Source: Thermoanaerobaculia bacterium (GTDB taxonomy: Bacteria; Acidobacteriota; Thermoanaerobaculia; Multivoradales; Multivoraceae). From it: a stretch of 64,000 bases of DNA. The notes under the pieces were generated by a model, which was given only the letters and a program-made list of their open reading frames with translations, had not been told where the DNA came from and did not search any database. Shown piece by piece: positions 19,030 to 32,494 of the stretch (its first letter is position 1; every line of letters begins with the position of its first letter). The position numbers were made by a program, and so were the translations under genes. The DNA lies in assembly GCA_942492505.1 (NCBI GenBank), contig CALOFD010000013.1, forward strand, positions 10,756 to 74,755, given 5' to 3'.

Positions 19030-21120
19030 TCAGTGCTCTTCTTCTTCGTGGCGCTTGTTCGCGGCGATCACCTGTTGCTGGATGTTGGCCGGCATCTCCT
19101 CGTAGTGGGAGTAGTTCATGGTGAAGCTGGCCCGGCCCTGGGTCATCGAAGTGAGAGCGGGGGAGTAGTCGAGCATCTCGGCCATCGGCACCAGGGCCTT
19201 GATCACCTGATGGCCTCCATCGAGGGCGTCCATGCCCTGGGGTCGTCCACGGCGCTGGGAGAGATCGCTCATCACGTCTCCGGTGTACTCCTCGGAGAGC
19301 GAGATCTCCACCTGCATCATGGGTTCGAGGAGCACCGGTGCGGCCCTGGACATGGCGTCCTTGAAGGCCAGGGAGCCGGCGATCTTGAAAGCCATCTCGG
19401 ACGAATCGACGTCATGGTACTGCCCGTCCTGCAGTCGCACACGTAGATCGACGACCGGGAACGACGTCGAGTAGCCGAGTTCGGCGGCTTCGCGGATTCC
19501 CTTCTCGACGGCGGGCCGGTAGTTCTGGGGAATGGCTCCGCCGAAGATCTCGTCGATGAACTCGAATTCCTCGCCGCGCGGCAGCGGCTCGAGGCTGATT
19601 CGACAGTCCGCGAACTGACCGCGTCCGCCGCTCTGCTTCTTGTGGCGGCCGTGTCCCTGGGCCGGTCGTCGAATCGCTTCCCGGTACGGGACCTTCGGCG
19701 GATGCAGGATGACGTCGACCTTGAACCTTGAGTGCAGCTTCGCCACGGCGATCTCGACGTGGAGCTGACCGGCTCCTGACAGCAGGTATTCACCGGTCTG
19801 TTCGTCGCGGCCGGCGTGCAGGGCGATGTCCTCGTCCATCAGGCGGTGGACGGCTTCGCCGATCTTCTCGTCGTCGCCCTTCGACTTCGGTTCCACCGCG
19901 AAGGAGATCGCCGGGGTGGGAGCGACGGGGAAGGCGAGTTTCACCGGCGCCGCCTTGTCACACAGGGTGTCGCCGGTGTTCGAGATCTTGAGTTTGGCAA
20001 CGGCGACGATGTCGCCGCAGATGGCGCGGTCGACGTTCTCGCCCTGCTTGCCCTGGATGTGCAGCAGGTGGCCGACCCTCTCGGCCTCCTCGGCACGACT
20101 GTTCCAGAAGGTGCTGTCGGAGTTCAGGGTGCCGCTTACGACCCTCAACAGCGAGACGCGTCCGCTGAAGGGGTCGTTGTTGGTCTTGAAGATCAGCGCC
20201 GAAGCGGGCGCATCGGGCGACAGCTCCACTTCGGTCGCTTCGCCGGCGATATTGGTGGCCGGAAAGGGAACGCGGTCCTGGGGTGAGGGAAACAGATCGA
20301 CGAAGGCGTCGAGGACCGCTGAAGTGCCGATTCCGTGACCGGCCGCTGTGGCCATGACCGGGAAGATCTGACGCGTGGCGATGGCCTTGCGCAGCCCCTC
20401 AGCCAGTTCCTCCGAGGTCAGGGTGCCCTCCTCGAAGAACTGCTCCATCAGTTCGTCATCGCTCTCGGCGACCGCTTCGACGATCTGGCTTCGCCAATCG
20501 GCGACGGCCTCGGAGAGATCCTCGGGTACGGGGCCCTCGTCGGCCTTGCCGTTGCCGTCACGGGTGAAGGTCAGGGCCTTCTCGGAGAGCAGGTCGACGA
20601 CGCCGGAGAACTCACTCTCCTGGCCGATCGGCAGGAAGAGCGGCAGGACACCGCGTCCGAACTTCTCCCGCAGACTGAGAACGAGGGTGTCGAAGTCGGC
20701 GCGTTCGCGGTCCATTCGGGTGGCGATGAGGGCCACCGGCTGCTCCATCTCCTCGCAGGTCTTCCAGAGTCGATTCGTCGAAACCTGGATCCCCGACGAG
20801 CCGTCGATGCACAGGCCGACCGCGTCCGCCACCCGGATGCCGCTGCGGATCTCGCTCGAGAACATCGGCAGGCCGGGGCAGTCGATGATGTTGACCTTGT
20901 GGTGTCTCCAGGGAGCGTAGACCGCCGACAGGCTGATCGAGATCGACCGTGCGATCTCCTCCGGGTCGAAGTCCGTGAGGGTGTTGCCGTCTTCGACCTT
21001 GTTCAGACGGGTGGTGACCCCGGATGTGTAGAGGAGGGCACTGACGAGGGTCGTCTTGCCCGTGTCGTTGTGTCCCACGATCGCGACGTTGCGGAGTCGG
21101 TCCACCGAATCGACCTTCAT
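19030..21120 (-). CDS. Elongation factor G paralog (EF-G2-like translational GTPase)
   Basis: 696-aa ORF; G domain NVAIVGHNDTGKTTL, DCPG, TRMD. EF-G domains II-V are recognisable (GQLHVEIAV..., GGRGQFADC...) but clearly diverged from fusA at 2081. Confidence 0.9.
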   Translation of the reverse strand: MKVDSVDRLRNVAIVGHNDTGKTTLVSALLYTSGVTTRLNKVEDGNTLTDFDPEEIARSISISLSAVYAPWRHHKVNIIDCPGLPMFSSEIRSGIRVADAVGLCIDGSSGIQVSTNRLWKTCEEMEQPVALIATRMDRERADFDTLVLSLREKFGRGVLPLFLPIGQESEFSGVVDLLSEKALTFTRDGNGKADEGPVPEDLSEAVADWRSQIVEAVAESDDELMEQFFEEGTLTSEELAEGLRKAIATRQIFPVMATAAGHGIGTSAVLDAFVDLFPSPQDRVPFPATNIAGEATEVELSPDAPASALIFKTNNDPFSGRVSLLRVVSGTLNSDSTFWNSRAEEAERVGHLLHIQGKQGENVDRAICGDIVAVAKLKISNTGDTLCDKAAPVKLAFPVAPTPAISFAVEPKSKGDDEKIGEAVHRLMDEDIALHAGRDEQTGEYLLSGAGQLHVEIAVAKLHSRFKVDVILHPPKVPYREAIRRPAQGHGRHKKQSGGRGQFADCRISLEPLPRGEEFEFIDEIFGGAIPQNYRPAVEKGIREAAELGYSTSFPVVDLRVRLQDGQYHDVDSSEMAFKIAGSLAFKDAMSRAAPVLLEPMMQVEISLSEEYTGDVMSDLSQRRGRPQGMDALDGGHQVIKALVPMAEMLDYSPALTSMTQGRASFTMNYSHYEEMPANIQQQVIAANKRHEEEEH

Positions 21121-21176
21121 TGGAGCTCCCTGGAGCGTTGTTGAGAAACCCTGAGTTTATCGTAGGGGCCGGCTGA

Positions 21177-21288
21177 GGATCGCACGCGATCTCGCCGTGT
21201 CCTCGCTCATCCCCTTGTGCGACGTAGCTCCGCTACGCCTCCGCGGGTCCTCGCTGCGGTACGACGATCTCACGCACGCTTCTCAGCC
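21177..21288 (+). repeat. M1 module (about 112 nt conserved structured repeat), copy A
   Basis: About 93% identical to 25335-25446. Also homologous to the reverse complements of 25806-25911 and 43291-43406. Confidence 0.85.
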
Positions 21289-21314
21289 TAGCGTGGGCGG
21301 GCCGGCCGGGGATC

Positions 21315-21442
21315 GCGGCAACCGTTCCGATTGCGGCAACCGTTCCGATTGCGGCAACCGTTCCGATTGCGGCAACCGTTCCGGTTGCGGCAACCGTTCC
21401 GGTTGCGGCAACCGTTCCGGTTGCGGCAACCGTTCCGGTTGC
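21315..21442 (+). repeat. Tandem array, 7 x 18 bp (GCGGCAACCGTTCCGRTT); each unit forms the hairpin GCAACCG-ttc-CGGTTGC
   Basis: Counted directly: units start at 21315, 21333, 21351 (CGATT variant) and at 21369, 21387, 21405, 21423 (CGGTT variant). There are no spacers. Confidence 0.95.
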
Positions 21443-21704
21443 TTGGGAGTTCGCTTCGCGAACTCCTGCCCCAATCTCGCCGAGTGCTCGTCGAGTCCCG
21501 TGTGGGCAACGCTTCGCGTTGCGGGAACCGTTCCGGTTGCTTGGGAGTTTCGCTTCCCGAACTCCTGGCGTAGGCCCGAGCAACCCCGCGGGTTGCTTTG
21601 AAGTTGCTGCGCGGACTTCTGCCAACACGGCTCTTGGGGGGCCGTTCCTGCGATTCGGGGAGGCCGCAGCTGTAGCGGTGGCCGGCAACCCTTTGGGTTG
21701 CCGT

Positions 21705-21757
21705 CCCCATCGAGGGCTGATCGATTTCTCCCCGGGCCCCGACTGATAGCGGTGACC
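21705..21757 (-). repeat. M2 module (about 50 nt repeat), copy A
   Basis: The reverse complement GGTCACC..CAGTCGGGGCCCGGGGAGAAATCGATCAGCCCTCGATGGGG matches 42862-42907. Confidence 0.75.
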
Positions 21758-21885
21758 GTGCGGCCGTTGGGAACGCTTCGCGTTCCTTGGCAGTTGCTTC
21801 GCAACTGCGGTGTCTGGACTCGGGTGGTCTTGGAGCTTCTGGCCTTCTGGATCGGGCCGTGGATGGAGGCTGGCCTGGGGTCGCT

Positions 21886-23244
21886 CTATCGGAATCGGGT
21901 ATCGGGCTGGACGACTTCGGTGGGGCCGAATTCTTCCAGTTGGGGCTGGAGTTCGCTGGCGGGGCCGACGGCTACGAGGGTCATGGTTTCGGGGTGGAGG
22001 TGGTCCTTGGCGACGCGGGCGAGGGTCGGGGCGTCGATGGTGGCGATGTCGTTCTGCCAGGTCTGCCAGTAGTCCTCCTCGAGGCCGAAGATGGCGAGGG
22101 TCCTCAGGTGCTGGAGGATGCCGCCGTTGGTCTGCAGGCCGTAGGGGAAGACGCCGAGGAGGTAGGAGCGGGTGTCTTCGATCTCCTCGGTGGTGGGGGG
22201 CTCGGTCTGGATCCTGGTGAGTTCGCCGAGGGTTTCCCGCAAGGCGGCGCCGGTGACGTCGGTGCCGACGGCGGCGGAGGCGACGAAGGGCCCGGGGCCG
22301 ATGCGGTGGGCGAAGGCGGTGCGGGCGCCGTAGGTGTAGCCGTGGCGCTCGCGCAGGTTCAGGTTGAGGCGGCTGGTGAACTTGCCCCCCAGCAGCGAAT
22401 TGAGGAAGGTCAGCGCGCTGCGATCGGGGTGGTCGCGGGGTTGCCCGACCTGGCCGACGCGGATCTCGGTCTGCGCGGCGTTGGGGCGGTCGACGATGAC
22501 GACTCGTCGTTGTGCCGCCGGCGGGGCCACAGGGGGGTAGGGCGGTGTCTCGCCGGCAGTGAGTGTGCCGAACGACTCGACGACCTGGGACGCGAGTTCG
22601 TGCGACTCGAAGTCGCCGACGGCGATCACGTGGGCGGAGCCGGAACGGTAGCGAGTCTCGTGGAACGCCACGAGGTCGTCTCGCTGGATCGATGCGACGG
22701 CCGCCTCTCCGCCCACCAGGGGAACGCCGTAGACGGTTCCCCGGTAGAGCTCGGAGGAGATCGTCGTCGAGGCCAGGGCGCCCGCCTGCGAGCGCATGCG
22801 CAGGATCTCGGCGAGTCGCTCGCGGCGCAGTCGCTCGATCTCGTCGTCGGCAAAGGCCGGCCGGATGACCGAGTCGGAGAGCAGGTCGAGACCGTCCGCG
22901 AGGTAGCTCGACAACAGGCTGAACGACGCCGAGGCGGTGTTCCAGCCGGCGCCGCTGGCCAGGCGGCCTCCCAGGCTTTCGATGTGCTGGGCGATCTCCT
23001 CTGAACTGCGGGTGCTCGTTCCCTCTTCGAGGAGGTCGGCGGTGAAGCCGGCCAGCCCAGGTTGGGACTCGGGATTGGCGTGGCCGCCGGCCTCGAAGAC
23101 GATCTGCAGCGTGACCAGGGGCGCGTGGTCGCGCCGACAGCTCCACAGGGTGAGCCCGTTCTCCAGGCGATGCCTTTCGAAGGCCGGAAACGTCGACTCG
23201 ACCGGAGCGCGTCGCGCCGGAGGCTGGCTGCGATCGAAGCTCAT
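21886..23244 (-). CDS. M16-family peptidase, HxxEH-less (non-catalytic-type) subunit
   Basis: ATG at 23244 (MSFDRSQPP...) overlaps the stop of the upstream M16 gene (ATGA). 452 aa. The longer 924-aa ORF is an out-of-frame extension. Confidence 0.88.
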   Translation of the reverse strand: MSFDRSQPPARRAPVESTFPAFERHRLENGLTLWSCRRDHAPLVTLQIVFEAGGHANPESQPGLAGFTADLLEEGTSTRSSEEIAQHIESLGGRLASGAGWNTASASFSLLSSYLADGLDLLSDSVIRPAFADDEIERLRRERLAEILRMRSQAGALASTTISSELYRGTVYGVPLVGGEAAVASIQRDDLVAFHETRYRSGSAHVIAVGDFESHELASQVVESFGTLTAGETPPYPPVAPPAAQRRVVIVDRPNAAQTEIRVGQVGQPRDHPDRSALTFLNSLLGGKFTSRLNLNLRERHGYTYGARTAFAHRIGPGPFVASAAVGTDVTGAALRETLGELTRIQTEPPTTEEIEDTRSYLLGVFPYGLQTNGGILQHLRTLAIFGLEEDYWQTWQNDIATIDAPTLARVAKDHLHPETMTLVAVGPASELQPQLEEFGPTEVVQPDTRFR

Positions 23245-24530
23245 CGAGCGCCTTCCTGGGGTTCGACCCGCACCCGCGCTCGTCCCGTGCCGGTCGACAG
23301 CCGTTGTGCGACCTGGCGGACGTCGTCGGTCGAGATGTCGTGCAGCAGCTCGATCTCGCGCTGGAAGTGCAGCGGGTCGTCGAAGTAGGTGGTCATCTGC
23401 GAGAGCAGATCGGCGCGTCGCTCGAGAGTCTGGATCTCGCCGTAGTAGGAGGTGAGAACCCGATTCCGGGCACGCTCGACATCCTGTTGCCTGGGTCCGT
23501 TCTCGGCGATCCTGTCGATATGCTCGAGCAGGGCGTTCTCCACCTCCTCGGCTGAAGTTCCCGGCCGGGCCGTGGCGCTGACGTGCAGGCAGCCGCTCTC
23601 TTCCGTGGGAAAGACGAAGGCACCGGCGCTCTGGGCGATCTCCCTGCGATAGACGAGGTCGTTGTGCAGCAGGCTGGACTTGCCGCCGCTCAACAGCATC
23701 GCGAGCAGATCGGCCGCGTACCAGCTGCGCTCGCCGTAGGCGGGAATCCGGTAGGCCATCATCGAACGAGACAGCTGAACGTCGTCGACGAGTTCCTCGC
23801 AGGGATCGTCGTCGCTGAGGTCGGCGTCTGCCCACTCGACCTCGGGAACCTCGGGGCCGGCCGGCAGATCGCCGAAGTAGAGCTCGACACGCTGCAGGGC
23901 CTTGTCGGGCTCGAGGTCGCCGGCCAGGGTGAGGACGGCGTTGTTCGGGGCGTAGTAGGTCTGGAAGAACTCCCGCACGTCGTCGAGGGTGGCGGCGGCG
24001 ATGTCTTCCATGTACCCGATCACCGGCCAGTGGTAGGGATGTCCGTCGGGAAACGCCAGCTCCTGGAGGCGCTCGGAGGCCCGACCGTAGGGCTGGTTGT
24101 CGACCCGCTGGAGCCGTTCGTTCATCACCACTCCACGCTGGTTCTCCAGCTTCTCCGACGTCATCGCCGGCAGCAGGAAGCCCATTCGGTCCGACTCGAG
24201 CCACAGACCGAGGTCCAGCGAGTCGGCGGGCAGGGTCTCGAAGTAGTTGGTGCGGTCGTACCAGGTCGAGCCGTTGGCCACGCCGCCGACCTGCTGGACG
24301 TACCTGAAATGGTCGTTGTCGCCGACGTTCGCGCTGCCCTGGAAGAGCATGTGCTCGAAGAGGTGGGCGAATCCGGTCTTGCCCGGCCGCTCGTTCTTGG
24401 AGCCGGCGTGGTACCAGAGGTTCACCGCCACCAGCGGCAGTCGCGGGTCGGGATGGATGACGACCTCGAGGCCGTTGGCGAGGCGATGTCGCTCGACTCT
24501 CAGGGGGGGAATGGTGGGCGTCGCAGACAT
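23241..24530 (-). CDS. M16-family zinc peptidase (pitrilysin-like, catalytic subunit)
   Basis: 429-aa ORF with the inverted zincin motif HLFEH in GFAHLFEHMLFQG. Confidence 0.92.
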   Translation of the reverse strand: MSATPTIPPLRVERHRLANGLEVVIHPDPRLPLVAVNLWYHAGSKNERPGKTGFAHLFEHMLFQGSANVGDNDHFRYVQQVGGVANGSTWYDRTNYFETLPADSLDLGLWLESDRMGFLLPAMTSEKLENQRGVVMNERLQRVDNQPYGRASERLQELAFPDGHPYHWPVIGYMEDIAAATLDDVREFFQTYYAPNNAVLTLAGDLEPDKALQRVELYFGDLPAGPEVPEVEWADADLSDDDPCEELVDDVQLSRSMMAYRIPAYGERSWYAADLLAMLLSGGKSSLLHNDLVYRREIAQSAGAFVFPTEESGCLHVSATARPGTSAEEVENALLEHIDRIAENGPRQQDVERARNRVLTSYYGEIQTLERRADLLSQMTTYFDDPLHFQREIELLHDISTDDVRQVAQRLSTGTGRARVRVEPQEGAR

Positions 24531-24653
24531 GACGGTCGAGTCTACGGGAGCCGGCTTCGAAGCGCATCCCGTCGCACCCCGAGCCCTCCACCGTGGAAGA
24601 CGGCCCGATCCCGGTGAGGGATGCGGGTGCGGGCGGCGCCGTCGGCAAACCTC

Positions 24654-24682
24654 TTGACATGCGCCTTGTTTACGCCTACCCT
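24654..24682 (+). promoter_or_regulatory. Candidate lexA promoter TTGACA-17 nt-TACCCT
   Basis: The -10 ends 6 nt before the GTG at 24689, which implies a leaderless or near-leaderless transcript. Confidence 0.35.
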
Positions 24683-24688
24683 GGTTCG

Positions 24689-25317
24689 GTGACGACCGTC
24701 AAGAACTACCTGACCAAGCGCAGAAGGAGATCCTCGAGTTCATCGAGGATTTCACCTCCAGCAACGGCATCTCGCCGACCCACCGCGAAATCTGCGAGGA
24801 GTTCGGCTACTCCTCCTACGGCACGGTGCACAAGCACCTCAAGCTGCTCCAGCAGAAGGGCTTCCTGAAGCGCGACTGGAATCAGAAGCGCGGACTCCAG
24901 CTCATGCGGCCTGCGGCCAGCGCCGCGGAGCCGCCGCTCGCGGAGGTTCCCTTCTACGGCCGTATCGCAGCCGGTCGGCCGATCGAGGCGTTGCCCGGCA
25001 ACGATTCGCTGCCGATCCCTCCCAGCCTCCTGCGTGGCGCCCACGGCGACCACTACGTCCTGCAGGTCACCGGCGATTCGATGATCGAGGAAGGCATCCA
25101 CGACGGCGACCTGGTGGTGATCCAGCGCAGCCAGCAGGCGAAGCCCGGCGAGATGGTGGTCGCGCTGGTCGACGACGAAGCGACGCTCAAACGCTTCTAT
25201 CCCGAAGGTGAGATCGTCCGCCTGCAGCCCTCGCATCCCACCATGCAGCCGATGCGCTTTCCGGCCGAGAGTGTGAGGATACAAGGCATAGTAGTAGGCC
25301 TGATGAGGTCCTTCTGA
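24689..25317 (+). CDS. lexA: LexA repressor, frame-disrupted as written (one nt missing near 24719-24722)
   Basis: VTTVKNYLTKR is in the frame of 24689. QKEILEFIEDFTSSNGISPTHREICEEFGYSSYGTVHKHLKLLQQKGFL... continues in the -1 frame to the S24 peptidase domain (VTGDSMIEEGI). 629 nt plus 1 gives 210 codons. Confidence 0.85.
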
Positions 25318-25334
25318 CGTCGAGGCGCGGCCGG

Positions 25335-25446
25335 GGATCGTACCCAATCTCGCCGTGTCCTCCTTCGTCCCCTTGTGCGACGTAGCTCCGCTACGCCTCC
25401 GCGGGTCCTCCCTGCGGTACGACGATCTCACGCACGCTTCTCAGCC
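25335..25446 (+). repeat. M1 module, copy B1
   Basis: Near-identical to 21177-21288. Confidence 0.85.
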
Positions 25447-25604
25447 TTTCGTAGGTGGGTCGGGCGGGGATCGCGGCAGCCCTTCGGGCTGCTTGGGAGT
25501 TCGCTCACGCGAACTCCTGCCCCAATCTCGCCGGATCCTTGTCGAATCCCTTATGCGAGGTTGGCAACCCTTCGGGTTGCTTAGAAGCTCGCTCCACGAA
25601 CCTC

Positions 25605-25667
25605 ACGCTCCGCTACGCTTCCGCGGGTCCTCACTCGCGGTACGACGATCTCCTGCACGTACCAGCC
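25605..25667 (+). repeat. M1 module, partial copy B2 (3' two-thirds)
   Basis: CGCTCCGCTACGCTTCCGCGGGTCCTCACTCGCGGTACGACGATCTCCTGCACG aligns to M1 positions about 50-112. Confidence 0.7.
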
Positions 25668-25805
25668 TCAGGTTGGGTAGTGATTGGACCCCTGATGTTG
25701 CCTGGAAGGCTTCTCGGGTTGACTCGGCCGGAGGAACTTCGAAGGGTCAGAGTTCTTGAGGCGCATTGGAGTTTGCAGCAACTCCAGCTAGCCAACCCAA
25801 CCTGA

Positions 25806-25911
25806 GGCCGGGAAGCGTGCGCCAGATCGTCGAACCGCAGGAGAGACCCACGAAGAGTTAGCGGAACTACCTCAAGCACACCCGACGAGGACTTGCCGAG
25901 ATGGGCGATCC
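25806..25911 (-). repeat. M1 module, copy B3 (inverted)
   Basis: The reverse complement GGATCGCCCATCTCGG...GGTAGTTCCGCTAAC...GCGGTTCGACGATCTGGCGCACGCTTCCCGGCC aligns to M1. Confidence 0.8.
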
Positions 25912-25972
25912 CCGGCCGACCCCGATCATGATACAGTTGGGGATTGCTAACTCTCTATAACTGAACGAACAA

Positions 25973-27406
25973 ATGACTGTAACGCCACTGTCGCAGGACG
26001 CCCCTGCGTCTACGATCGACGAGCTTTTGCGCCTGATGGCGGCGCGGGGGGCTTCGGATCTGCACTTGAAGCCGACGCGCCAGCCGTTGTTGCGGATCGA
26101 TGGTCGGCTGGTGGCGTTGGATGCGGAGCCGCTGCGTCGGGGTGAGATCGGGCGGATGTTGAAGGACGTTCTGCAGCCGCATCAGAAGGCGCGGTTGGAG
26201 AAGAACCTGGCGGTGGACTTCGGTTATGGGGTGCCGGGGTTGGCGCGCTTCCGCTGCAATGTGTATCTGCAGCGCGGCACGCTGGCTGCGGCGTTCCGGC
26301 GGATTCCGATCGAGATCGCAGGGCTGGAGGAGCTCGAGCTGCCCGAGAGCCTGCTCGATTTCTGCAATCTGCCGATGGGTCTCGTGTTGATCACCGGCCC
26401 GACCGGCAGCGGCAAGTCGACGACGCTCGCAGCGCTGCTGAAGCACATCTCGGCGACCCGCCCGGTGCACATCATCACGATCGAGGACCCGATCGAGTTC
26501 CTGTTCGTGGACGACAAGGCGAGCATTTCGCAGCGCGAGATCGGGATCGACACGCCGGCCTTCAGCGAGGCGCTGCGCAACGCGGTCCGTCAGGACCCCG
26601 ACGTGATCATGGTCGGCGAGATGCGCGACCCCGAGACCGTCTCCACGGTCATCACCGCCGCCGAGACCGGTCATCTGGTCTTTTCCACCCTCCATACCAA
26701 CAGCGCCACCCAGACCGTCGACCGGATTCTCGACAACTTTCCGGCCAACCAGCAGGCGCAGGTGCGCTCGCAGCTATCCCAGCTGATCAAGGGCGTCGTT
26801 TCGATGCAGCTGGTCGAGCGCACGGAGGGCGGGCGGATCGCGGCCCTCGAGATCCTCAAGGCGTCGCCGCAGGTCGAACAGATCATCGAGAAGGGGAGAA
26901 CGGCGGATCTGCACGAGGCGATCGAGTCGTCGGTGGCCCATTTCTCGATGCAGTCCATGAATCAGTCGCTGATCGCACTGCTGGTCCACGGCTCGATCAC
27001 CTACGACGAAGCGATCCGCCGGTCCACGGATCCAGATGACCTGTCCCTGAAACTGAGAAAGATGTTCCCGAAGATCGAATCGGAGGGTGAAGATATGTCC
27101 AGCGTCGCCGATTTCTCCCAGATTTCCGAGTTGCGAGAGTTCCGCCGGCTGTACGAAGAGCAGGAAGACAAGGTCAAGGTCCAGCTCGAGCAGAAGGACG
27201 AGCTGATCGCCGATCTGCGCGCCCGGATGCAGGAGCAGCAGAGCGAGTTGGCCACCCTCGAGGGCCGCCAGAAGGATCTTCGCGAAGAGGTCCAGCGGCT
27301 GGAGGCGGAGCGCGATCGCACCGCCCGCGAGCAGCAGCAGAAGACCGACAAGCTGATGGAGAGGATCAAGGAACTCAATCAGCGCCTGGTCAGCCTCGGC
27401 GGTTGA
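25973..27406 (+). CDS. pilT: PilT-family type IV pilus retraction ATPase with a C-terminal coiled-coil extension
   Basis: 477 aa; Walker A GPTGSGKST, Asp box ITIEDPIEF, Walker B DPDVIMVGEMRD, His box TGHLVFSTLHT. The last 110 aa or so are heptad-like and charged. Confidence 0.9.
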   Translation: MTVTPLSQDAPASTIDELLRLMAARGASDLHLKPTRQPLLRIDGRLVALDAEPLRRGEIGRMLKDVLQPHQKARLEKNLAVDFGYGVPGLARFRCNVYLQRGTLAAAFRRIPIEIAGLEELELPESLLDFCNLPMGLVLITGPTGSGKSTTLAALLKHISATRPVHIITIEDPIEFLFVDDKASISQREIGIDTPAFSEALRNAVRQDPDVIMVGEMRDPETVSTVITAAETGHLVFSTLHTNSATQTVDRILDNFPANQQAQVRSQLSQLIKGVVSMQLVERTEGGRIAALEILKASPQVEQIIEKGRTADLHEAIESSVAHFSMQSMNQSLIALLVHGSITYDEAIRRSTDPDDLSLKLRKMFPKIESEGEDMSSVADFSQISELREFRRLYEEQEDKVKVQLEQKDELIADLRARMQEQQSELATLEGRQKDLREEVQRLEAERDRTAREQQQKTDKLMERIKELNQRLVSLGG

Positions 27407-32352: not shown

Positions 32353-32379
32353 TAGGCCGCGGACGATCGGGTCAGAAGT

Positions 32380-32494
32380 CTGATCGAAGATCAGACGGAT
32401 CGCTGATCGAAGATCAGACGGATTGCTGATCGCAGATCAGACGGATTGCTGATCGAAGATCAGACGGATTGCTGATCGAAGATCAGACGGAGGC
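32380..32494. repeat. Tandem array, 5 x 23 bp (CTGATCGAAGATCAGACGGATTG); each unit contains the hairpin CTGATC-gaa-GATCAG
   Basis: Units start at 32380, 32403, 32426 (gca loop), 32449 and 32472. The array holds 10 GATC sites and lies between convergent genes. Confidence 0.95.

Follow-up and report, generated by a model that had tools for sequence, protein, structure and literature searches.

M1, a palindromic repeat of Thermoanaerobaculia and Geobacterales, and its likely pile-up between lexA and pilT

Introduction

Enterobacterial repetitive intergenic consensus (ERIC) sequences, or intergenic repeat units (IRUs), are imperfect palindromes of 127 bp in the Enterobacteriaceae. A comparable repeat, here named M1, fills most of the region between lexA and pilT in an uncultured Thermoanaerobaculia bacterium (Acidobacteriota; GenBank assembly GCA_942492505.1, contig CALOFD010000013.1, positions 10,756 to 74,755 of the forward strand; this whole stretch of 64,000 nucleotides is referred to as the window, and its numbering is used below). 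M1 resembles ERIC in size, in its rod-like imperfect palindrome and its transcribed intergenic location, in the formation of longer variants via insertions at fixed internal sites, and in being represented by old copies with no known transposase. However, the two sequences are unrelated, and M1 differs in following a stop-codon and orientation rule and in having a relative with the ends of a MITE (miniature inverted-repeat transposable element).

Sequences related to M1 itself have been listed for Geobacter metallireducens: Aklujkar et al. (2009) tabulated Gmet_R1001-R1024 as 24 “predicted regulatory short RNAs” that have GRCGTAGCGCTGCTACGCC as their central palindrome (PMC2700814, Additional files 4 and 5), and gave no structure, mechanism or placement rule for these elements (PMC2700814). 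One of them, Gmet_R1006, is 81% identical over 91 nt to the first M1 unit of the lexA-pilT region, with a score of 83, where shuffled sequences score 17.5 on average and 33 at most, a closeness that equals that among the copies within the Thermoanaerobaculia genome. The Gmet elements are similar to M1 in length (111-116 nt) and in their central palindrome (GACGTAGCTCCGCTACGCC in M1 here), share with it the flanking blocks CATCTCGCCG, CTTGTGCG, CCTCCGCGG and CGACGATCT, and likewise lie in intergenic or intercistronic positions, co-oriented with a gene. They differ in host phylum, the M1 copies described here belonging to the Acidobacteriota (class Thermoanaerobaculia), and in their outer stems; moreover, hairpin insertions resembling repetitive extragenic palindromic (REP) sequences, and the pile-up of units, are features of M1 here. 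An unnamed repeat of uncultured Thermoanaerobaculia is thereby linked to Geobacter elements that were never followed up after 2009. New for the family are a covariation-backed structure, a covariance model, and a simple placement rule, and G. metallireducens provides a culturable system for its study.

Similarities also extend to REP sequences and the bacterial interspersed mosaic elements (BIMEs) built from them, and to REP doublets forming hairpins (REPINs) with their REP-associated tyrosine transposases (RAYTs). As in these systems, GC-rich hairpin modules (H1 and H2 in the genome considered here) occur in mosaic clusters, hairpins are under selection, with compensatory changes, and the elements are sited after stop codons and between cistrons. 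In contrast to REPIN-RAYT systems, M1 is not linked to a RAYT gene and is one long structured unit with conserved blocks rather than a doublet of short REPs. The tag at the foot of REPs (GTAG/CGTC) is not conserved in M1 either, which has CGTAGC here and CGTAC in most other genomes. Finally, the Chunjie MITE of Geobacter (Geotalea) uraniireducens is 178-235 bp long and A+T-rich, with terminal inverted repeats (TIRs) of 21 bp and direct repeats of 9 bp (PMC3184786). Chunjie belongs to the host group of some M1 copies and is alike in being non-coding, in forming stable hairpins and in inserting into operons; as an identity for M1 it was ruled out by size, composition and ends, M1 being 123 nt long, with 65-70% GC and no 9-bp repeats.

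Anatomy of the lexA-pilT Repeat Block

The repeat block between lexA and pilT, hereafter copy B (25329-25917), is probably a local pile-up in which three M1 units, independent of each other, are accompanied by two smaller hairpin modules and the inversion of the two ends is incidental (Table 1). An earlier note on this DNA had described it as a MITE-like element that is bounded by inverted M1 copies of about 110 nt and contains a partial third copy. Its outer boundaries hold: GGCCGGGGATCG occupies 25329-25340, the reverse complement CGATCCCCGGCC occupies 25906-25917, and the bounding copies are recognized by the covariance model on opposite strands, with arms that can be aligned over 121 nt. 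The match of the inverted unit 3 covers 25804-25920 (86.6 bits, E value 2e-16). The internal fragment, which had been placed at 25605-25667, is real as well; however, iterated nhmmer searches resolve three units instead of two and a half, and the fragment is the 3' half of a complete unit 2 that is split by two hairpin modules. Unit 2 is preceded by a TAGG junction (25453-25456), and its 3' half is 93% (25607-25635) and 91% (25637-25659) identical to unit 1. In an alignment of copy B with seven other tandem M1 dimers, the modules are seen elsewhere at these two internal sites as well.

The two ends of copy B have different histories. Unit 1 is co-oriented with lexA and starts 8-13 nt past the lexA stop codon depending on the boundary chosen (13 nt if counted from the nhmmer start). 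It shares 92% identity with the M1 unit of a second cluster in the window, copy A (M1 at 21170-21290), and 73% with unit 3 (BLAST, 72.7% over 121 nt). Unit 3 reaches at most 79% identity to any other M1 copy and folds no better than shuffled sequence does (z -0.3 and -0.4). These differing similarities, together with the lost fold of unit 3, imply that the two ends are insertions of different age. The short repeat that the note had seen at 25666-25678, facing the inverted copy, belongs to a 17-nt inverted repeat (CCAGCCTCAGGTTGGGT/ACCCAACCTGAGGCCGG, 25662-25678/25795-25811) that matches at 94%, and folding of 25600-25920 gives the long imperfect stem that had been predicted (-153 kcal/mol, z -5.8), with a spacer of about 116 nt enclosed. 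When the whole 606 nt are folded, unit 1 pairs with unit 3 (z -7.9). Searched against the 3.77-Mb assembly, the spacer matches nothing but itself.

Table 1. Features of the lexA-pilT region, in window coordinates.
Feature	Position	Strand	Characteristics and evidence
lexA	24689..25317	+	S24 peptidase part intact, 24826-25317; TGA stop 25315-25317; sequence, open reading frame (ORF), Peptidase_S24 match 3.6e-30
M1 unit 1, full length	25326..25448	+	covariance model 121.1 bits, E 7e-24; nhmmer 97 bits
M1 unit 2, 5' outer stem and GATCGC (model positions ~1-13)	25459..25474	+	tandem-dimer alignment
Hairpin-module insertion 1 in unit 2	25475..25519	.	H1 (GCAGCCC-TTC-GGGCTGC) and H2 (GGAGTTCGC-TCAC-GCGAACTCC)
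M1 unit 2, model positions ~14-57 (CCCCAATCTCGCC...GCGAGGT)	25520..25561	+	nhmmer match 25521-25659, 57 bits, with insertion
Hairpin-module insertion 2 in unit 2	25562..25606	.	H1 and degenerate H2; splits apical hairpin at GT^AGC
M1 unit 2, 3' half and family tail CCTCAGGTTGGGT	25607..25678	+	partial covariance-model match 25524-25652
Unique spacer, 116 nt	25679..25794	.	small local hairpin (TTGGAGTT..AACTCCAG)
M1 unit 3, inverted, older, decayed	25795..25920	-	nhmmer 66 bits
Non-repeat segment beside pilT	25921..25972	+	52 nt; TATAAC -10-like box 25956-25961
PilT/PilU-family ATPase, C-terminal coiled-coil tail	25973..27406	+	TIGR01420 1.5e-124; orthologues align up to residue ~474

The Empty Site in Relatives and the Likely pilT Promoter

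The gene order M16 peptidase-lexA-pilT is conserved throughout the order. In 16 relatives with lexA adjacent to pilT, the gap between the two genes measures 53-268 bp, compared to 655 bp from the lexA stop (25317) to the pilT ATG (25973) here, and M1 is absent from the gap in all 16. Since relatives keep the gene order with a gap of 53-268 bp, copy B is an insertion: the block is missing at the same site, which identifies it as inserted repeat DNA and not as a conserved regulatory region. In one further relative (G020, L045 660-1500), the gap of 792 bp holds an opposite-strand ogt-like (methylated-DNA methyltransferase) gene between lexA and pilT, and a very weak full-length M1-like match (17 bits) starts 4 nt after its lexA stop. 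A search with PilT for encoding contigs of the strain returned no match, and a metagenome scan for closer relatives returned loci with at best 67% protein identity, none of which carries M1.

The repeat block occupies 589 of the 655 bp and thus fills most of the intergenic region, as the note had stated. The conclusion drawn there, that the block must carry or displace the pilT promoter, is not required, as 52 nt of non-repeat sequence with a TATAAC box remain in front of pilT. This box lies 11 nt upstream of the ATG, and several relatives have a -10-like box (TAGAAT, TATAAA or TACAAT) 5-13 nt ahead of the pilT start; a scan for consensus promoters found none on the + strand before pilT. Judging from sequence, the segment is likely the native, compact and near-leaderless pilT promoter, which would have been left in place by the insertion. 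For the locus, a false lead is thereby removed: neither a transposon with giant TIRs nor a displaced pilT promoter is needed.

M1 as a Repeat Family of This Genome

M1 is a non-coding, non-autonomous palindromic element of the MITE/ERIC/REPIN kind. It folds into a rod-like imperfect palindrome with the ends GGCCGGGGATCG... and ...CTTCCCGGCC. In the genome, 50 nhmmer matches form 35 clusters, all of which are intergenic by the gene calls of this analysis; about two thirds of the clusters consist of a single unit, and several are direct tandems. The arrangement of a + unit followed by a - unit was found only in copy B and in two further clusters, C18 and C66. These two lie between convergent genes, where each unit directly adjoins its own gene's stop codon.

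The structure is supported by covariation: among 19 full-length copies, 38 base pairs were identified with 97.6% of cells paired, and in 22 of these pairs both partners have changed. The observed values are not reached in any of 500 shuffles, and sliding the partners against each other destroys the signal. The outer stem comprises 7-9 bp here and covaries rather than being conserved in sequence. By hand count, TA(G) precedes at least 13 of 26 copies, and TA follows only 6. The copies are old, with a mean identity of 80% and a best pair at 92%.

No Rfam family was found at gathering thresholds across the window; the only matches in 21100-26000 were chance miRNA matches on the tandem hairpin array of copy A. 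The large M1-bearing intergenic regions contain no transposase-like ORF. Integron attC sites were considered as an identity for M1. They carry R''/R' core sites (RYYYAAC ... GTTRRRY) at both ends; M1 has no AAC/GTT cores at its ends, and its copies are dispersed beside housekeeping genes, which rules out this assignment.

The hairpin modules that interrupt unit 2 are repeats in their own right. H1 (GCAACCC-TTC-GGGTTGC and compensated variants) is present at about 179 sites genome-wide and H2 (GGAGTTCGC-loop-GCGAACTCC) at about 100, and about half of the sites of each lie no more than 400 nt from an M1. Within M1, both recur at two fixed internal positions, namely after GATCGC (13/14) and at the apical GT^AGC (57/58); the break at model position 57/58 was found again in several further M1 copies. 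In copy A, seven tandem 18-nt H1 hairpins (GCGGCAACCGTTCCGRTT, 21315-21442) stand exactly where copy B has one.

A Relative With MITE Ends

In G031, a genome from a different family of the same order, the M1 core lies within a 174-nt element that has a 16-nt TIR (CCTGGACTATTCATGA) and CTAG on both flanks. The element is present in at least 45 near-identical copies (86-98% identity). It has given rise to shorter derivatives (L221, L222): one of 52 nt, which has both TIRs but lacks the M1 core, and a stub of about 26 nt with a solo TIR. The CTAG flanks are kept in both. The TIR pattern occurs in G031 only in pairs that are no more than 200 nt apart. By its ends and flanks, the G031 element appears to be the product of recent transposition of the DDE kind with a TA/CTAG target.

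In its TIRs and CTAG flanks, the G031 element is similar to bacterial MITEs that target TA or CTAG, which are either derived from IS630/Tc1-mariner elements (e.g., Correia and Nezha) or of the IS5 type with CTAG duplications. M1 in the Thermoanaerobaculia genome differs from these MITEs, since it lacks TIR extensions of this sort as well as a clean duplication, and since the M1 family conserves its inside across genomes, not its ends.

Directly next to the G031 MITE, one arm of a different repeat is often found (GTTTCTGCCGCGCAGACTC followed by CTAG; flanks L226-L242). It was considered whether this recurrent GAGTCTGCGCGG flank is one half of a split palindromic target; this was ruled out, as the uninterrupted palindrome CCGCGCAGACTCCTAGGAGTCTGCGCGG is absent from G031. 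The flank is therefore the end of a second element and marks clustered insertion.

Placement and Orientation

M1 units are found directly behind genes. For 15 of the 26 full-length units, a co-oriented gene has its stop codon 2-19 nt before the unit begins, and in none of the 26 does the other side of the unit abut a gene end. The TAG within the conserved 5' flank (TAGGGCCGG) is often the stop codon itself. Unit 1 of copy B obeys this rule, unit 3 does not. Of the 50 matches, 24 lie between convergent genes, an enrichment over the 16% of intergenic regions that are of this kind, and M1 is rare between divergent genes. Elsewhere, the rule is followed by 10 of about 19 cluster-first copies in other Thermoanaerobaculia and by 7 of 7 copies in Geobacterales (offsets -9 to +4).

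Stop codons that adjoin M1 are enriched in TAG: TAG, TAA and TGA were counted 10, 2 and 2 times, compared to a genome-wide usage of 28.5%, 1.9% and 70% (p = 0.001). TAA thus accounts for only 1.9% of stop codons in this genome, which has 66% GC. The tetranucleotide CTAG is depleted about tenfold (1148 observed versus about 12000 expected), and 392 of the remaining sites are NNC-TAG stop codons. Much of the placement rule, i.e., the position directly after a stop codon and in sense orientation, may therefore be explained by targeting of TA/CTAG in a GC-rich genome.

The two strands of M1 differ in their folding. Among 49 copies from three clades, the better-folding strand is the complement of the upstream gene's mRNA in all but one, although the model was built on this strand and may slightly favor such copies. 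Mean folding energies are -67 to -72 kcal/mol versus -53 to -56 kcal/mol for the other strand, and z scores are -5.5 to -6.7 versus -3.0 to -3.9; conserved G.U pairs on the better-folding strand correspond to A.C mismatches on the opposite one. The recent copies in G031 show no orientation bias (1 forward-only, 5 reverse-only, 3 both, 10 neither), which suggests that the bias in old copies probably stems from selection after insertion.

How M1 May Spread, and Competing Explanations

Taken together, the G031 ends and the placement data suggest how pile-ups such as copy B might form. M1 would spread by DDE-type cut-and-paste or copy-in at targets that contain TA (TAG or CTAG). With CTAG depleted and a third of its sites being NNC-TAG stops, elements would tend to land on stop codons, and a G at the M1 end could restore the TAG stop after insertion. 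Each insertion might regenerate a target at its own edge, which could lead to tandem arrays of up to seven units and to nested clusters like copy B. Copies would then survive mainly where the weaker-folding strand enters the mRNA of the upstream gene. Several observations weigh against this scenario. The mobility of M1 in this genome has to be inferred, its copies being old; no clean target-site duplication surrounds them, and what follows them on the 3' side is in most cases TCAGG instead of TA. Nor did an autonomous transposase whose ends match come to light: DDE_3 (IS630-type) is absent from G031 (97% complete), other transposase families not having been searched. A single DDE_3 match in the Thermoanaerobaculia genome was rejected as an artefact: the ORF concerned is off-frame, rich in arginine and overlapped by a second long ORF. 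Furthermore, the empty site is evident at family and order distance only, and across genomes and phyla it is the core that is conserved and not the ends, a pattern that plain MITEs do not usually show and that hints that the core is functional.

That copy B is instead one composite MITE of 589 bp, moving as a unit with its two 110-nt M1 copies as TIRs, is highly improbable. The 12-nt inverted termini are indeed exact, inversion of the arms extends for about 120 nt, the whole block folds into a long stem, and C18 and C66 likewise show a + unit followed by a - unit. Yet the arms of such an element are only 73% alike, whereas unit 1 is 92% like copy A. No direct repeat flanks the block, which lies between ...GAGGCGC and GACCCCG, and its spacer is unique. 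A second whole block was not found, only the left ~230 nt being common to copy A; the inversion in C18 and C66 follows from stop-codon placement at convergent genes; and clusters are mostly single units or direct tandems, each M1 being a self-contained palindrome. The label MITE-like hence suits the non-coding repeat family, with its copies elsewhere in the genome and its MITE ends in G031, but not the 589-bp block as a single MITE. Mobilization of M1 as a REPIN-type element, on single-stranded DNA and by a RAYT-like Y1 (HUH) tyrosine transposase, also seems quite unlikely. It would fit a long imperfect palindrome with compensatory changes, one strand of which folds clearly better and whose apical hairpin contains GTAG here; moreover, the genome encodes a Y1_Tnp/RAYT-like protein of 307 aa in two tandem copies (96% identical, C59:18297-20148). 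However, the similarity of this protein to REP-associated transposases is weak (39 bits, far under the family cut-off of 80), and its gene is flanked neither by M1 nor by any other repeat on C59. Of 300 genomes in the order, 205 have homologues of the protein (~45% identity), often in at least 7 copies. These homologues are not commoner in M1-bearing genomes (about 34 of 46 by hand count); they form a large unexplored HUH-transposase-like family. In addition, GTAG is replaced by GTAC in other genomes, and the TIRs and CTAG flanks of G031 are hallmarks of DDE and not of Y1 transposition.

A third explanation is possible, though we consider it doubtful: the conserved M1 core of about 100 nt could be a functional structured module, a cis-element of the transcript or of single-stranded DNA, for which the MITE-type ends are only a vehicle and which is kept after stop codons in one orientation. 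Its target may be the end of the upstream message, or else the opposite strand of the DNA, e.g., with mRNA 3' ends or stability being set, translation termination tuned, or antisense read-through blocked. As an mRNA 3'-end stabilizer, processing site or termination modulator, it would here act on the lexA 3' end and on read-through into pilT. The 81% identity of the core across two phyla with variable ends, the strong covariation, and the stop-codon placement in sense orientation that is conserved in three clades all speak for such a role, as does the unbiased orientation of the recent G031 copies, by which the bias looks selected. The same intercistronic positions are occupied in a polyamine operon of G. 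metallireducens and Geotalea sp. (see below), and the Geobacter copies were annotated as predicted regulatory short RNAs by Aklujkar et al. (PMC2700814). On the other hand, the distribution of M1 is patchy (46 of 300 genomes) with variable copy number, each genome has its own subfamily, and there is no Rfam family. In 48 of 49 copies, it is the antisense strand of the upstream gene that folds best, which argues against selection for a stable mRNA hairpin. If the explanation is true, the M1 core would represent an unrecognized, widespread class of cis-elements common to Thermoanaerobaculia and Geobacterales. Gene calling and operon prediction are distorted by M1-type elements, which also break assemblies and can alter mRNA fate.

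Distribution of the M1 Family

The M1 family is old, present in two bacterial phyla and conserved to an unusual degree, although the element as such is of an ordinary kind. Among 300 genomes of the same order, the covariance model detected full-length M1 in 46, which represent 25 of 89 genera and six families. An exact-pattern scan, with one genome per species, returned mostly Thermoanaerobaculia, Acidobacteriota and “Candidatus Multivoradales” metagenome-assembled genomes; Geotalea sp. SG265 and Oryzomonas (Geobacterales) carry M1 as well, with model scores of 71-86 bits. In Geotalea sp. SG265 (L170 1564-4639), M1 units separate the genes for an HTH-cupin regulator, a saccharopine-dehydrogenase-like protein, an nspC-like protein and speA. 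The positions of the three units in this polyamine operon are those of Gmet_R1010-R1013 in G. metallireducens (PMC2700814). At two sites of the same locus, a weaker inverted second unit is also present.

Longer arrays were observed in other genomes: seven tandem M1 units with a period of 135 nt in a “Candidatus Multivoradales” sequence (L192, OZ243123.1, 5044-5955), and three with a period of 133 nt at L174 3116-3503. In both arrays, the inner units are without the outer stem.

Neighboring Features

The reading frame of lexA contains an apparent frameshift at 24716-24724, where the reading ...LTKR is followed by a change of frame. With one extra C in AAGCGCAGAAGG, translation would continue as K-R-Q-K-E; as it stands, the open frame comprises the S24 domain ORF (24826-25317) only. 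The frame change reflects either an assembly error or a disrupted lexA.

Further downstream, at 32357-32494, the window contains five tandem 23-nt units (CTGATCGAAGATCAGACGGATYG), each of which is a small GATC-rich palindrome that bears no relation to M1. The coiled-coil tail of PilT comprises about 110 residues (27065-27406) and is conserved: orthologues from across the order and from metagenome contigs align to residue ~474-477.

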